In this document: one piece after another, positions 30,763 to 40,424 of the stretch
How positions within the stretch are numbered: position 1 is the first letter of the stretch
Layout of the letters: each line of letters opens with the position of its first letter
DNA from: Promethearchaeia archaeon
Lineage (GTDB): Archaea; Asgardarchaeota; Lokiarchaeia; Sigyniarchaeales; SOKP01
Direction of reading: 5' to 3'
Assembly (NCBI GenBank): GCA_029856145.1
Contig: JAHQWK010000024.1
Coordinates: 43,131-107,130, forward strand
Length of the DNA: 64,000 nucleotides
Notes under the pieces: model-generated
Databases searched by the model: none
What the model was told of the DNA's origin: nothing
What the model saw: only the letters and a program-made list of their open reading frames with translations
Made by a program: the position numbers and the translations under genes

Positions 30763-32283
30763 ATGGCACTGCCTTTACCTGGAACACCAATTATAATTGA
30801 TATCGGATCGGCATACGTAAAAATCGGATTTGCGGGAGAACCGGGGCCAAGATTTGTGTTCCCCTGCATTACTGGAACCGAGAAATATAAATCTGTCATG
30901 GTTGATGTAAGTGCTAGAAGCATATATGTTGGAAACGATGTATCCCGTATGCGTGGTGTCCTTAAAATCAAGCATCCCGTAAGTCGTGGCGAAATCATGG
31001 ACTGGGACAGTTACTATGAAATCCTGAATTACATTTTTTATTCACTACTTAGAATTGAAGATCTTACTCAATATCCTGTATTCTATTGTGAATCTACTTT
31101 CATGCATAGAGAAACTAAAGAGTATATTGCTCGACTTTTCTTTGAAACTCATCGGGTTAAAAGTTTGATAATGATGCCAACACCACTGTTATCTTTATTT
31201 AGTGTTGGCTTAACAACAGGCTTAGTAATCGAATCAGGAGATGGTTTGACTTGGATTGCCCCAATAATAAATGGAACAATAGTTCAACATGCGGTTCAGA
31301 AGCTTCCTCTTGCCGGAATTGATGTAAATCAAAACTTTAAAGGTCTTTTAATGAGGGAAGGTGTAAGTATCGCCTCTAGTGCAGCGGATGAAATCATACA
31401 AGAAATAAAAGAGAAAAATTGTTACTTTGTTTTAGACGCGAATAAGCCCTTAAAGGCAGGAGATATGTTTAGTGTTCCAATGCCAGATGGTTCGACTATT
31501 AATGTTCCAACTTATATTCTATATCAAGCTCCGGAAGTGTTATTCAATCCTGGAATGCTAGGATATAGTAATATTATGAATCTCCCTCAAGCAATAATTG
31601 CTAGTTTAAGAAATATTGATAGTCTTTATTGGTATGATCTTTTATCTCATATAGTTTTTTCAGGAGGGAATCTTTCATATTCCGGCTTTCAAGAACGTTT
31701 CGAGGCGGAGTTAGATTTGGTTATTCCTCAATTAGGTTCTATTCCAAAACCTGTTACACCCCTTTCTGCTGTTAAAAGCGAATTAATCAAGCTACAAGCA
31801 GTTGAAATTTCAAAAAAGAAAGAGGATACATGCCCTAACTGTGGGGCTTTTGTGGATCTTAGCGATGGAAAAAATTTATGTTCCTCGTGTGGTGGAGTAT
31901 TAATCTTACCAGAAATCAAGATTGGTGAAAAAGATGAAATTAAACAAAAAACCCAAGAGGGAAAATGCCCACATTGTGGGAAAGATGTTTCTGATTTAGA
32001 TTCACTCTTTTGTCCTTATTGTGGAAAGCCGATAGAAACTTTAGAAGCAGGTAATGTCTCGAAAGAATTAATAGAAAAAACACCTGCACAAGAATTCTCT
32101 GAATCTATTAAATCAGCAAGTAAAATACTCAAATTTTTTGTACCTAATAATCTTCAATATGCTATTTTTAATGGAGCTGCAATTCTCGGAAGCTTGGAAT
32201 CCTTTAGAAAATTATTTATTACATACGATCAGTTTCAAGTTAATAAGGAATTATTATATAGAGATATCAGTGAAATTCTTTAA
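30763..32283 (+). CDS. Asgard actin-related protein with zinc-ribbon insertion
   Basis: IIDIGSAYVKIGFAGE (phosphate 1), ESGDGLT (phosphate 2), SGGN (adenosine), PEVLFNP; four CxxC pairs at 31831-32022. Confidence 0.93.
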   Translation: MALPLPGTPIIIDIGSAYVKIGFAGEPGPRFVFPCITGTEKYKSVMVDVSARSIYVGNDVSRMRGVLKIKHPVSRGEIMDWDSYYEILNYIFYSLLRIEDLTQYPVFYCESTFMHRETKEYIARLFFETHRVKSLIMMPTPLLSLFSVGLTTGLVIESGDGLTWIAPIINGTIVQHAVQKLPLAGIDVNQNFKGLLMREGVSIASSAADEIIQEIKEKNCYFVLDANKPLKAGDMFSVPMPDGSTINVPTYILYQAPEVLFNPGMLGYSNIMNLPQAIIASLRNIDSLYWYDLLSHIVFSGGNLSYSGFQERFEAELDLVIPQLGSIPKPVTPLSAVKSELIKLQAVEISKKKEDTCPNCGAFVDLSDGKNLCSSCGGVLILPEIKIGEKDEIKQKTQEGKCPHCGKDVSDLDSLFCPYCGKPIETLEAGNVSKELIEKTPAQEFSESIKSASKILKFFVPNNLQYAIFNGAAILGSLESFRKLFITYDQFQVNKELLYRDISEIL

Positions 32284-32436: not shown

Positions 32437-33537
32437 TTGAAGCATAAATATCGGAATTTTATCATTATTATTTTTGTATTATTTTTAACATTAAATGCAA
32501 TTCCGAGTGTGTTAGGAAAAACACGGCAGTCATATTTAAAGGATTTTATATTAGATACTGAAATTGTAGGAAAAGGGTTTTCCAATGTTATTAGTGATGA
32601 AGACAATGTGAATTTTGAAGCAACAGCTTATGCTTTGAATCTTTTGAATGATTGGGGAAGAGATCCACAAGAGATTGAAGATCTTAAAAGTAAATTGGAA
32701 GATAATATTGTAGCAATGTTTGATAGTACTCATGTAAATATATATAACTTATACTATCTATTGAATTCACTGAACATATTAGAACATACTATTGATTCAA
32801 GTTTATCAAATAGAATTTATGAATATCTAAATGAGACTGAGCAGATAAATGGTGGATTTTCTTTTTCAAACACAACTCATTTGCCAAGCTTAACTTATAC
32901 ATTTTATGTTATTCAACTTTACTCATTGATAGGGCAACCGATTGCAAATATATCAATTCATAAAGATTGGGTTCTTTCTTGTAATAATACTGATGGCGGG
33001 TATGGAGGTAATCAAACATTATCATCTACATATATTGATACATGTTTTGCAGCATTTATCCTGGATGATGAAAGATTTGGAGATATTAATGATTTAGTCG
33101 ATATTAACAACACATTAACTTACCTCAAATCTTTTTATGTTAATAATTCTGCAGATCTTAACAACTATGGAGGATATCTTCCTGATGAATTAGCTGGATA
33201 TGCTTTATTAAGTAGTACATATTATTGTGTAAAAGCAATTTCTTTAATCAGTGGTAGTGAATTCAATAATCAAGAAACAAGCTCATGGGTACTAGCACGC
33301 CAAAACTTCGAGGATGGTGGATTTGTAGAGAATGCTGAAGGAATCCAACAAAAAATCTCTTCAGTCATATCTTGCTATTATGCATACAAAACTTTGGAAA
33401 TATTAGGCTCTTTATCTAGTTTATCTCTTGATGTTTGGATGGTTGAGTTTAATTATCTGATTTTAGGTATTGTATTAGGTTCGATTGGATTAATTATCGC
33501 TATAGTTGTTTTTCTTTGGAGAAGGAGAAGAATATAA
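32437..33537 (+). CDS. Membrane-anchored exported prenyltransferase/squalene-oxidase-repeat (alpha/alpha barrel) protein
   Basis: N-terminal signal-like helix; repeats NGGFS, DGGYG, YGGY and DGGF; C-terminal TM followed by RRRR. Confidence 0.8.
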   Translation: MKHKYRNFIIIIFVLFLTLNAIPSVLGKTRQSYLKDFILDTEIVGKGFSNVISDEDNVNFEATAYALNLLNDWGRDPQEIEDLKSKLEDNIVAMFDSTHVNIYNLYYLLNSLNILEHTIDSSLSNRIYEYLNETEQINGGFSFSNTTHLPSLTYTFYVIQLYSLIGQPIANISIHKDWVLSCNNTDGGYGGNQTLSSTYIDTCFAAFILDDERFGDINDLVDINNTLTYLKSFYVNNSADLNNYGGYLPDELAGYALLSSTYYCVKAISLISGSEFNNQETSSWVLARQNFEDGGFVENAEGIQQKISSVISCYYAYKTLEILGSLSSLSLDVWMVEFNYLILGIVLGSIGLIIAIVVFLWRRRRI

Positions 33538-34699: not shown

Positions 34700-35155
34700 A
34701 TGGCGATTCTTGAAGTAGGAATAAACATAGGTATGCGAAACTTAGTTGAGATTAAATATTATTCTTCCTCAGATGATGTCTTAGATCCAAACTTACGTGC
34801 GGGTTTTTTAACGGCACTTGAAAGTTTTACCAGCGAGGTATTCGGCGATAATATAAATGTAATCTCTCTTGCTTCCTTTAAGTTAGTATGCTTCTGTGAG
34901 ATGATTACATTACCAAGTGATGATGAAACTAATAAACAGCCTTTATTATCATATGCTATAATAGAAAAAGCAACAGATGTTACAGTCGTCAAACGCCAGT
35001 TAAATCAAATCATTACTTATTTCTTGAACCGCTATCCCCTTAACGATATATTTTCAAAAAAACCTAAATACTTCAAACAATTTGAAATTCGAATTAATGA
35101 AGTGTTAGGGGATTTAAAATTGAAAACAGAGGATAGATTTCGTTCTTTATTTTAA
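34700..35155 (+). CDS. Longin/roadblock-like domain protein
   Basis: DPNLRAGFLTALESFTSEVFGDNINVI motif, shared with the 15107 and 59590 proteins. Confidence 0.7.
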   Translation: MAILEVGINIGMRNLVEIKYYSSSDDVLDPNLRAGFLTALESFTSEVFGDNINVISLASFKLVCFCEMITLPSDDETNKQPLLSYAIIEKATDVTVVKRQLNQIITYFLNRYPLNDIFSKKPKYFKQFEIRINEVLGDLKLKTEDRFRSLF

Positions 35156-35177: not shown

Positions 35178-36371
35178 TTGAGCTCAAATTTACCGACTGC
35201 TGCAAAAGCAAAATATCAAGAATATCTTGATGCGGGTTCTACAGAAGAAAAGATAAAAAAGTTAGAAGAATTTTTATCTTTGGTTCCTAAACATAAAGCT
35301 ACAGAAAAAATTGTTGCCCTTAATAAATCTCGTTTAGCAAAGATGAAACGTGAAGTAGAGGAGCGGAGACAAAAGCAGAAAATCACCCAAAAGATTGTCA
35401 GCCCTTTTTCAATAAAAAAGGAAGGACTCCAAATAATATTAATTAGCAATTATTATACACCTGGAGTGGGAAAAACAACTCTTTTAAATTATTTAACAGG
35501 AGCAGCAAATGAAAAAATTGGTAGATTCACCCCCATTCCAGAAATTGGAATATATAAGTATCAAAATATTAGATTTCAAATTGTGGATATGCCCTCCATT
35601 ATGGAAGGTGCTTCTGATGGAGTTGGTAATGGAAAAGAAATTCTTTCGCAACTCAGAGCAGCAGATCTATTATGTTTTTGTATCGACTTATCTCGAAATA
35701 TTAAAGATCAGATGGATTTATTGTTAAAAGAATTAACTAGAGCCGACATTCGAATAAACCTACCCCCTCCACCTCTCACTATTGAGAAAACTGGGGCGAA
35801 TAAAATTCAAGTCCTATATATGACTAAAGAAGCAAAAGGAATTGAGGAATTGGAAAAATTAACAGAAGAAATAAAAGAAATTGTGAATGAAAATGGAATA
35901 CGTAATGGAATTGTAAAAATTTACGGGAAAATAACAATTGATAATATTATTGACGTTCTTACTCCCTCTGTTGTATATAAAAAAGTAATAATATTGGGGA
36001 CTAAAGGGGATCTTCCTCATACTCAAGAAACTTTTGAAATGTTAAAAACGAGATATTCTGATAGATTTCCGATAATACTAGGAACAAGTTTCCAGAAAGA
36101 GAATTTTCCAAAAGATTTTGGTGAAATAATCTTAAAATTTCTAAAGAAAATTAGGATATTTACTATGAGTCGTGGAATAGTAGCCGATCAACCTCTCCTT
36201 ATGGAAGAAGGAGTAACTGTAAAGGGGGTCGCTGAGAAGATTCATAGAAGCTTTTATGAGAGCTTTGACCATGCTATTGTTATGCGTGAAGGAGTGCGCC
36301 AGAAGCGGAAAAAAGTTGGTCTAGATTATATTTTAAAGGATTATGATATAGTAGAAATACATATAACTTAA
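35178..36371 (+). CDS. Archaeal DRG/OBG-family GTPase with TGS domain (divergent motifs)
   Basis: N-terminal LEEFLSLVPKHKATEK; PGVGKTT; TKGD; TGS domain TVKGVAEKIH...VGLDYILKDYDIVEI. Confidence 0.88.
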   Translation: MSSNLPTAAKAKYQEYLDAGSTEEKIKKLEEFLSLVPKHKATEKIVALNKSRLAKMKREVEERRQKQKITQKIVSPFSIKKEGLQIILISNYYTPGVGKTTLLNYLTGAANEKIGRFTPIPEIGIYKYQNIRFQIVDMPSIMEGASDGVGNGKEILSQLRAADLLCFCIDLSRNIKDQMDLLLKELTRADIRINLPPPPLTIEKTGANKIQVLYMTKEAKGIEELEKLTEEIKEIVNENGIRNGIVKIYGKITIDNIIDVLTPSVVYKKVIILGTKGDLPHTQETFEMLKTRYSDRFPIILGTSFQKENFPKDFGEIILKFLKKIRIFTMSRGIVADQPLLMEEGVTVKGVAEKIHRSFYESFDHAIVMREGVRQKRKKVGLDYILKDYDIVEIHIT

Positions 36372-39455: not shown

Positions 39456-40424
39456 GTGAAAAAAATGCCTGATATAAGAATTAAGACTCCTCCATTGGAT
39501 AAAGTATTCGAAAAATGGAAGCAAAGAGCAGTAAGAACGGATCGGAAAAAAATGGAAAAAGAGTTTGGGACAAAAGGTGCTGTTTTCTCATTAGACGCAG
39601 TTAGCGCAGCTGAATATGTAAAAGAAACCACAAAAGAGGCAGCAATTTATTTTGCACTTAAAAAATCTCTTGGTCCCGCCCCAAAAGGAAAGGAAGAAAA
39701 CCTTGTAACAGCCCCAAGAGTTGTTCGAGAACAATTTTATTCCTTTAAAGGAGCTGGAAAGATAAATAAAGAGGAATGGAAAGGAAATGAAATAGTTCCT
39801 CACTTTGAATCAATTCAAGCAGTTTCTTGTAAAAATTGTCGAGGAAAAGGATATATCGAAAATAAATGTAAAACCTGCAAAGGAACTGGAAAAATTGAGG
39901 AAACTTTGACAGTTCTTGTTGGTGAAGAACAGAAAAAGGAAAAGAAACCATTTTCTTATCCCTGTGCAACTTGTTTTGGCACAGGAAATAGAACAGAACC
40001 TTGCAAAGAATGTGGAGGTTATAAAAATATGTATAAATATGAAGAACTCCCTGTACCATTTCAAACAGTGGTAACAGGAGCCCCCATCCTTCATTCAAGC
40101 GCTCAAACCAAGTATGAAAAGGAGATTGGAGAGGATCTCCATAAAATGATTGAAGACGTCGAAGGAATAAAATTTAGTGATTTCAAAGAATTAGACTCTA
40201 AAGCAGAAGCGTCATTAGGATATTGGAATAAAAATATTAAAAAAACCATTAACTCTGCTGGTAGTGATTATAAATCTTATGAAAAAGACAAAGATGCTCA
40301 AATTACATCTCAAATTTATCTCTTTCCTATGATTTTGATGAATGCTGAAACGAAACGTGGTAAAAAATTTGAAATTTATAGTCTTGGATCAGGAGAAAAA
40401 TTTATGGTATATTCTAACTTCTAA
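39456..40424 (+). CDS. DnaJ-type zinc-finger protein without a J domain (SSUH2-like)
   Basis: CKNCRGKG, CKTCKGTG, CATCFGTG and CKECGGYK; no HPD motif. Confidence 0.75.
   Translation: MKKMPDIRIKTPPLDKVFEKWKQRAVRTDRKKMEKEFGTKGAVFSLDAVSAAEYVKETTKEAAIYFALKKSLGPAPKGKEENLVTAPRVVREQFYSFKGAGKINKEEWKGNEIVPHFESIQAVSCKNCRGKGYIENKCKTCKGTGKIEETLTVLVGEEQKKEKKPFSYPCATCFGTGNRTEPCKECGGYKNMYKYEELPVPFQTVVTGAPILHSSAQTKYEKEIGEDLHKMIEDVEGIKFSDFKELDSKAEASLGYWNKNIKKTINSAGSDYKSYEKDKDAQITSQIYLFPMILMNAETKRGKKFEIYSLGSGEKFMVYSNF

Follow-up and report, generated by a model that had tools for sequence, protein, structure and literature searches.

Gene and Domain Architecture

The window, which is the whole analysed stretch of 64,000 nucleotides from an archaeon of the Lokiarchaeia, contains at positions 30763–32283 of the plus strand (on which all features below lie) an intact open reading frame for an actin-related protein of 506 amino acids, P0001, which we call zinc-ribbon Arp. 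Residues 9–319 match the Pfam family Actin (PF00022) with an E value of 6e-62 and 210 bits, compared with a gathering cut-off of 27, and the homologues and the AlphaFold2 model described below support the same assignment. The best sequence match in the PDB is the Asgard "HC1 actin" 9wc4 (E 1e-65), in an alignment that ends near residue 324 and picks up near residue 454. Aligned with a eukaryotic actin taken from the representative search, whose residue numbering is used for actin positions throughout, the core stops after P322 and restarts near K326, at about residues 453–455 of the query. Between these borders an insert of ~130 amino acids (residues ~323–452, positions 31729–32118) stands in place of the actin loop 323–325 in subdomain 3, and the rest of the actin fold (actin ~326–375) follows at 32119–32283. 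An earlier note on this DNA had reported such an insertion with CxxC motifs at 31735–32120, in close agreement with these borders.

The insert carries two zinc ribbons, one formed by C357, C360, C373, and C376 (31831–31890) and one of the FCPYCG type formed by C402, C405, C417, and C420 (31966–32022), as identified by Pfam and by alignment. Zn_ribbon_3 (PF13248) matches in two stretches, the better one at residues 356–380, DUF7575 (PF24460)/Zn_Ribbon_1 matches at 399–425, and DZR (PF12773) spans 357–421; all these scores exceed the curated cut-offs, and the cysteine spacing is CxxC-x(8–12)-CxxC. The motifs had been read as two double zinc ribbons, but eight cysteines make two single C4 ribbons, that is, one "double zinc ribbon." In contrast to other C4 zinc ribbons, these lie inside an actin fold, and a PDB sequence search with the insert returned matches to solved structures at chance level only. 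A feature search of the ESM Atlas with the insert gave no usable match. Longer fused forms (887–2530 aa) of zinc-ribbon Arp were not found either, which is weak evidence.

An AlphaFold2 model built on a 135-sequence alignment reached a mean pLDDT of 81 (53 if only 31 close orthologues were used), with most of the core above 90 and the ribbons near 68. By Foldseek, the model shows the four-subdomain fold of actins with a TM score of 0.91 by target length. It also matches an Actin+DZR cluster of the ESM Atlas with 79 archaeal members (TM 0.79 over 421 residues). The insert is placed in subdomain 3 at loop 323–325, on the barbed face, and three linkers within it (residues 334–350, 383–399, and 426–447) are predicted to be disordered, with pLDDT below 50. 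In this model, zinc-ribbon Arp is an ordinary actin fold with two small modules tethered flexibly to it. Together with the alignment and Pfam, it confirms the actin fold and the full-length D-loop that had been proposed from the sequence.

Conservation and Distribution

All 120 listed homologues (62–100% identity) have both Actin and ribbon Pfam matches. Four CxxC motifs are present in 100 of 100 fetched loci, and all eight cysteines, in the two-knuckle arrangement of C4 ribbons, are invariant in 90 of 90 aligned orthologues. The insertion is therefore not missing from orthologues, the finding that would have spoken for an assembly chimera; the homologues, the motifs in the fetched loci, and the presence of the gene in closed genomes rule this explanation out. 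GC content is uniform along the gene and alike in insert and core (0.356 vs 0.354), and synonymous changes outnumber nonsynonymous ones about 3:1 in the core and likewise in ribbon 1.

The insert varies from about 100 to 214 amino acids across orthologues, and its net charge lies anywhere between –29 and +6 (–2 in this protein). This range does not support the earlier suggestion that the insert binds nucleic acid or acidic membrane, and a basic nucleic-acid-binding insert was rejected as a candidate on the same grounds. Ribbon 1 is present in every orthologue examined. L. ossiferum and the deepest-branching family have a single ribbon each and lack ribbon 2; L. ossiferum probably lost it, since its branch nests among two-ribbon forms.

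A single copy of the zinc-ribbon Arp gene was found in 139 of the order's 153 genomes (38 of the 39 of high quality); a search of about 190 other Asgard genomes showed none among the best matches listed. Its restriction to one order differs from the Lokiactin-type spread over all Asgard lineages. Within this order the orthologues diverge to 36% identity, and the Lokiactins of the genomes that hold them fall in one 90% cluster. Exact look-ups identified the orthologues of two cultured strains: UYP44711.1 of L. ossiferum (499 aa, one ribbon) and QEE17409.1 of P. syntrophicum (557 aa, two ribbons). One genome of the same family as the present one (G040; 100% complete, 60 contigs) shows three actin homologues, with the zinc-ribbon one not found; loss or an assembly gap is possible.

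Phylogeny

This genome encodes four actin homologues. Its canonical Lokiactin (L001:5274–6419), located on another contig, is 36% identical to zinc-ribbon Arp and belongs to the same 90% cluster as the Lokiactin of L. ossiferum (UYP47028.1). In a tree computed without the insert columns, which leaves the deeper branching order unresolved, zinc-ribbon Arp and its orthologues form a 100/100 clade of their own on a long stem (0.62), outside a group of Lokiactin and eukaryotic actin (97/95). A second paralogue, of the UYP44126.1 type and referred to here as paralogue 2, forms a separate 100/100 clade. A further 100/100 group, without zinc-ribbon Arp, unites the actins of eukaryotes with eight close relatives of eukaryotic type; one of the eight has Arp1 as its best PDB match, and the tree includes no named Arp2, Arp3, Arp4–9, or Arp10/11. 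The orthology of UYP44711.1 is evident from the look-up, the common clade, and common synteny.

Phylogeny had been named as a check on whether the protein groups with canonical Lokiactin, which it does not. The separate Lokiactin gene, the position of the clade, and the changed residues described below all argue that it is, as had been proposed, a specialized Arp-like paralogue.

Active Site

The phosphate-1 loop (residues 13–20) is encoded at 30799–30822 and the phosphate-2 region at 31231–31254. Across the family, D11, G13, K18, G156, G158, E214, G301, and G302 are invariant, K213 is kept in 94%, and position 157 is Asp or Glu in 92%, so that the phosphate-1, phosphate-2, and adenosine motifs are all recognizable. 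Because of these invariant residues, zinc-ribbon Arp likely binds nucleotide. Within the phosphate-1 loop, N12 is replaced by I and G15 by A. S14 is kept in this protein and is E or Q in deep-branching orthologues, including UYP44711.1 and QEE17409.1; an S14→E replacement may weaken ATP binding in such members.

In F-actin, the attacking water is held by Q137 and activated by D154/H161, and a Q137/D154/H161 triple alanine mutant has no measurable ATPase activity (PMC9646518). The residue alignment bears out the four substitutions that had been read by eye: T140 corresponds to Q137 (31180–31182), E157 to D154, and W164 to H161 (both in the phosphate-2 region), and R75 to H73 (30985–30987). Among 96 aligned orthologues, the Q137 position is T in 64%, S in 34%, and A in 2%, and never Gln; the D154 position is Glu in 97% and the canonical Asp in only 3%; and the H161 position is Trp in 85%, the canonical His not figuring among the residues listed. 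H73 is replaced by Arg in 100% of the family, and N111, R177, and R183 are likewise changed, whereas Q137, D154, H161, H73, N111, R177, and R183 are all 100% conserved in Lokiactins (n=36). With Q137, D154, and H161 all changed, poor ATP hydrolysis by zinc-ribbon Arp is a sound inference from its residues.

Stacking Faces

We next consider the two faces by which actin subunits stack, using longitudinal contact positions assigned from background on F-actin rather than computed from coordinates. Each face was scored as identity to the Lokiactin consensus at Lokiactin-conserved contact positions other than Gly and Pro. The pointed face of zinc-ribbon Arp scores 0.60 and its barbed face 0.29, compared with a background of 0.38 (permutation p=0.0036; p=0.011 with all positions). 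Paralogue 2 shows 0.35 and 0.49, respectively; its own bias is not significant (p=0.14), and the difference of differences between the two proteins gives p=0.0009. These p-values overstate the case, because neither the positions nor the related sequences are independent. A pointed-over-barbed bias occurs in 26 of 26 orthologues (+0.13 to +0.48) and is weakest in the cultured strains (+0.17 and +0.22). Among 38 other divergent actin-like proteins, the mean bias is –0.10 (sd 0.20), and one of them exceeds +0.32.

On the pointed side, the D-loop (residues 41–52, 30883–30918; pLDDT about 60 in this block) is of eukaryotic length, two residues shorter than that of Lokiactin, and Lokiactin-like at K39, Y40, M44, and D46. 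K39, Y40, Y53, R62, V64, P243, D244, and G245 are invariant in the family. On the barbed side, the family has lost Y143, R147, Y166, F169, D288, R290, and Y294 of Lokiactin. In this protein, W290 replaces R290 (31630–31632) in the decayed 286–291 contact, where D288 is lost as well, and the insert loop 323–325 lies on this same face. The hydrophobic cleft (L346, L349, F352) is largely kept, and lateral contact positions do not stand out from background (0.32). Within the family, self-conservation is 0.59 for the barbed and 0.57 for the lateral positions, vs 0.70.

One stacking face kept and the other disabled is the pattern of an end cap, as far as contact lists based on general background on F-actin can tell. 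Of the roles that the earlier note had offered, cap and adaptor fit these surfaces. Nucleator is disfavored, because an Arp2/3-like nucleator must present a conserved barbed face and here this face has decayed to a score below background.

Expression and Lokiactin Pull-Down in L. ossiferum

Published proteomes of L. ossiferum (bioRxiv 10.1101/2025.11.30.690169, Supplementary Table 2) were used after mapping the gene identifiers. GNAMCCOK_01003 is FolD by mass (31.93 vs 31.95 kDa) and GNAMCCOK_01004 the membrane protein encoded downstream of the Arp gene (41.88 vs 41.90), so that GNAMCCOK_01005 is the Arp by gene order, an assignment whose offset lies within the range seen in the ID list that the paper gives. 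Under this mapping, the Arp was detected in 16 of 16 proteomes with a mean of 16.12 vs 21.69 for Lokiactin, which makes it about 48-fold rarer if the scale is log2. By RT-qPCR, the UYP44711.1 transcript, like those of two other non-Lokiactin homologues, is several-fold below that of Lokiactin (PMC9834061). An abundance this low fits a protein that binds ends or acts as adaptor better than one that forms bulk polymer. Zinc-ribbon Arp is a genuine protein of Loki-type Asgard archaea, actin-like and low in abundance.

The Arp is not among the listed rows of a cross-linked Lokiactin Co-IP (log2 ratio > –1.06, with 841 rows lower), and a stable, quantitative complex of the two proteins is therefore unlikely. 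For looser binding the experiment is a weak test. Among the gelsolins that were enriched, the rarest in the proteome (17.27) came down about 5.5 log2 units short of what its stoichiometry would give, and a gelsolin-like recovery would leave the Arp close to the limit of detection. Enrichment of profilin 1 was likewise not significant.

Genomic Neighborhood

The gene downstream of zinc-ribbon Arp (32437–33537) encodes a protein of 366 amino acids with an N-terminal hydrophobic leader, a prenyltransferase-like alpha/alpha toroid (PF00432, E 2.6e-14), and a C-terminal membrane helix followed by a cytoplasmic tail of 6–7 residues (basic and six residues long in this genome). It accompanies the Arp gene in 95 of 96 loci and in 15 of 18 further loci, across four families. 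The rule that the Arp always lies next to a surface-protein gene does not strictly hold, as three loci (L171, L179, and L180) break the link. The genes for FolD (87/96) and a ModE-like protein (85/96) are nearly as constant, and the gap behind the Arp gene measures ~100–360 nt and contains T-rich tracts. A scan for Sigma-70 promoters gave chance-level results, with a model unsuited to archaea. The L. ossiferum proteome contains ~40-fold more of the neighbor than of the Arp (21.46 vs 16.12), and the Lokiactin Co-IP did not enrich the neighbor (ratio –0.02). We consider the likelihood of a direct partnership low, and the neighbor is probably no functional part of the Arp system.

The neighbor itself is an uncharacterized, single-copy surface protein found order-wide. 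In L. ossiferum (L164:5056–6204, matched by mass) it ranks about 73rd of 3061 proteins, near the level of Lokiactin, which makes it a candidate for forming the surface structures that tomography shows in abundance.

Similar C4 ribbons occur on 54 open reading frames of this genome. A predicted membrane helix is present in 29 of these 54, compared with 718 of 3270 other open reading frames (22%; p=5e-7), and the closest ribbons are mostly on small membrane proteins. The ribbon type only hints at a membrane-side partner.

Proposed Role and Alternative Explanations

We propose, with a probability of roughly 0.4, that zinc-ribbon Arp is a nonpolymerizing, hydrolysis-poor Arp that caps or anchors the barbed ends of Lokiactin filaments through its pointed face while its ribbons hold a partner. 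We infer zinc binding, absence of self-assembly, Lokiactin binding, capping, and a ribbon partner alike. In this mechanism, the Lokiarchaeia-specific, single-copy Arp would bind nucleotide, hydrolyze it poorly, and form no long filaments of its own. Its conserved pointed-end face (D-loop, R62-G63-V64, 204–208, and P243-D244-G245) would dock on Lokiactin, either at a filament's barbed end or as a monomer. The exposed barbed face of the Arp, being degenerate and bearing the tethered ribbons, would then accept no further Lokiactin, and the filament would end there. The ribbons could tie this end to another protein, with the membrane as a plausible site. The Arp persists with its pointed face intact in a lineage where paralogue 2 was not found (0 of 4 genomes), and in one genome (G341) only Lokiactin and the Arp were seen. 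The lateral contacts at background weaken the cap, as a cap normally touches the second strand as well.

A doubtful but serious alternative is that zinc-ribbon Arp serves as a monomer, as scaffold or adaptor of a nonfilament complex, and that its pointed face and ribbons have binding partners other than Lokiactin. Nuclear Arps act in this way, and the missing enrichment in the Lokiactin Co-IP, the decayed lateral contacts, the lost hydrolysis residues, the low abundance, and the many other proteins in this genome with the same ribbon type all agree with it. Such a scaffold leaves unexplained why a Lokiactin-like pointed face has survived a long branch along which the barbed face decayed, and no candidate partner co-occurs specifically with the Arp. 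The complete actin fold, the intact D-loop, the nucleotide-binding residues, the largely kept cleft, and an insert that could point outward on its flexible linkers would also allow a low-abundance, nondynamic filament of its own or a sparse copolymer with Lokiactin, with ribbons projecting from the surface. This is improbable given the variability of the barbed and lateral faces within the family, the divergence of the orthologues next to nearly uniform Lokiactins in the same genomes, and the roughly 50-fold lower abundance.

We give somewhat less credence still to a pair with paralogue 2, either as an Arp–Arp module or as an Arp2/3-like nucleator. The surfaces of the two proteins are complementary, paralogue 2 retaining its barbed face, and most genomes of the two large families have both genes. 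Against this, paralogue 2 was not found in five genomes (63–88% complete) of two small families that have the Arp or are kin to it, a head-to-tail arrangement would hide the two conserved faces and leave nothing to serve as template, the bias of paralogue 2 alone is not significant, and the genes are unlinked. That the Arp is the cytoplasmic partner of the neighboring surface protein, joining cytoskeleton and envelope, draws on the most persistent syntenic gene and on the enrichment of ribbon proteins for membrane helices. It is nevertheless quite improbable, as the unrelated FolD and ModE-like genes persist almost as well, three loci break the link, a T-rich gap separates the genes, the tail is 6–7 residues long, and the neighbor is far more abundant than the Arp and unenriched with Lokiactin. 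Least probable is that the ribbons tie the actin fold to DNA or RNA. C4 ribbons of transcription and translation proteins do bind nucleic acids, and there are weak matches to RpoP/TFIIB-type ribbons below their cut-offs, but the insert is not consistently basic, and the closest ribbons in this genome belong mostly to small membrane proteins.

Relation to Known Actin-Related Proteins

The paralogue as such has been seen before: UYP44711.1 is one of three non-Lokiactin homologues included in a tree, where they clustered with ARPs, and in RT-qPCR, and it was given there without domain description or function (PMC9834061). In the literature searched, outside of which most subscription papers lie, we found the accession only in that article and no description of the insert or of a function. 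What was known already is therefore a tree branch and an RT-qPCR target. Databases label homologues as "zinc ribbon domain-containing protein" or "actin-related protein." UYP44711.1 and QEE17409.1 resemble our protein in clade, insert site, and gene neighborhood; they differ in an identity of only about 36%, in S14→Q/E, and, for UYP44711.1, in having one ribbon.

With Lokiactin, zinc-ribbon Arp shares the actin fold, the nucleotide-binding glycines, D11, K18, K213, E214, and the pointed-end face, and it differs in the 130-aa insert, the decayed barbed and lateral faces, the catalytic changes, and the restriction to one order. For Arp11 of dynactin, the same kind of reasoning with the two faces exchanged predicted a pointed-end cap (PMC2174220). 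Zinc-ribbon Arp would work like Arp11, for which we claim no orthology: both are actin folds with one stacking face kept and the other disabled by insertions or deletions. In Arp11 the barbed face is retained and residues 38–57 are absent, whereas zinc-ribbon Arp, its mirror image, retains the D-loop and would have its barbed face blocked. Arp2 and Arp3 have short inserts near the same subdomain-3 loop, but they present their barbed faces as a filament template, a surface that is decayed in zinc-ribbon Arp. They are substoichiometric and not expected to copolymerize (PMC2199984).

Asgard archaea crawl by means of a dynamic Lokiactin cytoskeleton, and zinc-ribbon Arp is near-universal in one order and expressed in a cultured strain. 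The only core regulators of Lokiactin named so far are gelsolins and profilins (PMC13716822). The sequence signature of the Arp predicts barbed-end binding by the pointed face, no polymer, and little ATPase activity. If this holds, archaeal actin paralogues came to divide their labor in parallel to the eukaryotic Arps and with a geometry that eukaryotes do not use. To our knowledge, no Arp serves as a barbed-end cap in eukaryotes, where barbed-end capping uses CapZ and gelsolin. If it does not hold, there is still an actin fold carrying an inserted metal-binding module that we found described nowhere. Since zinc-ribbon Arp is limited to a single order, it has little direct bearing on the ancestor of eukaryotes.

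Other Actin Homologues and Neighboring Genes

Paralogue 2 lies at L002:5322–6443 in this genome and occurs in 49 of 61 genomes of the order. It keeps Y143, Y166, H173, D286, D288, and R290 and has lost M44, R62, A204, and the C-terminus, with Q137→D/G and H161→R. From these residues, it is a candidate pointed-end cap or seed. That Lokiarchaeia evolved, independently of eukaryotes, two end-regulating paralogues, zinc-ribbon Arp as barbed-end cap or anchor and paralogue 2 as pointed-end cap or seed, is a speculative and, taken as a whole, rather unlikely extension. Upstream of paralogue 2 in at least nine loci lies a gene for a proline-rich protein of 221 amino acids (L002:6569–7234; 18% Pro, no NCBIfam match) with a nearly invariant C-terminal helix motif, which to our eyes recalls WH2 or VASP-type tails.

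The fourth homologue (L003:4988–6184) is very divergent, with 23% identity to P0001 and the changes D11→N, K18→R, and Q137→E. Close to its gene lie a roadblock-like open reading frame and one for a von Willebrand A-like protein whose linker is rich in Pro, both recognized by eye. Other Asgard lineages have actin-family open reading frames of 696, 754, and 853 amino acids (L149:1495–3585, L155:1468–3732, and L152:67–2628); the Pfam match of the 696- and 754-residue forms breaks in two near position 67–69, which suggests a large insert in subdomain 2. Three of the representatives (P0129, P0131, and P0138) are tandem double-actin proteins of 742–767 amino acids, and the aligned domain of P0138 has a pointed-over-barbed bias of +0.57, in the same direction as zinc-ribbon Arp.

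Further downstream in the window, an open reading frame of 151 amino acids (34700–35155), longin-like by eye and without Pfam or NCBIfam match, is followed by a gene for an Obg/DRG-type GTPase (35178–36371), both syntenic in about 80 of 96 loci. The gene at 39456–40424 encodes a protein of 322 amino acids that has DnaJ-type CxxCxGxG repeats without a J-domain match.
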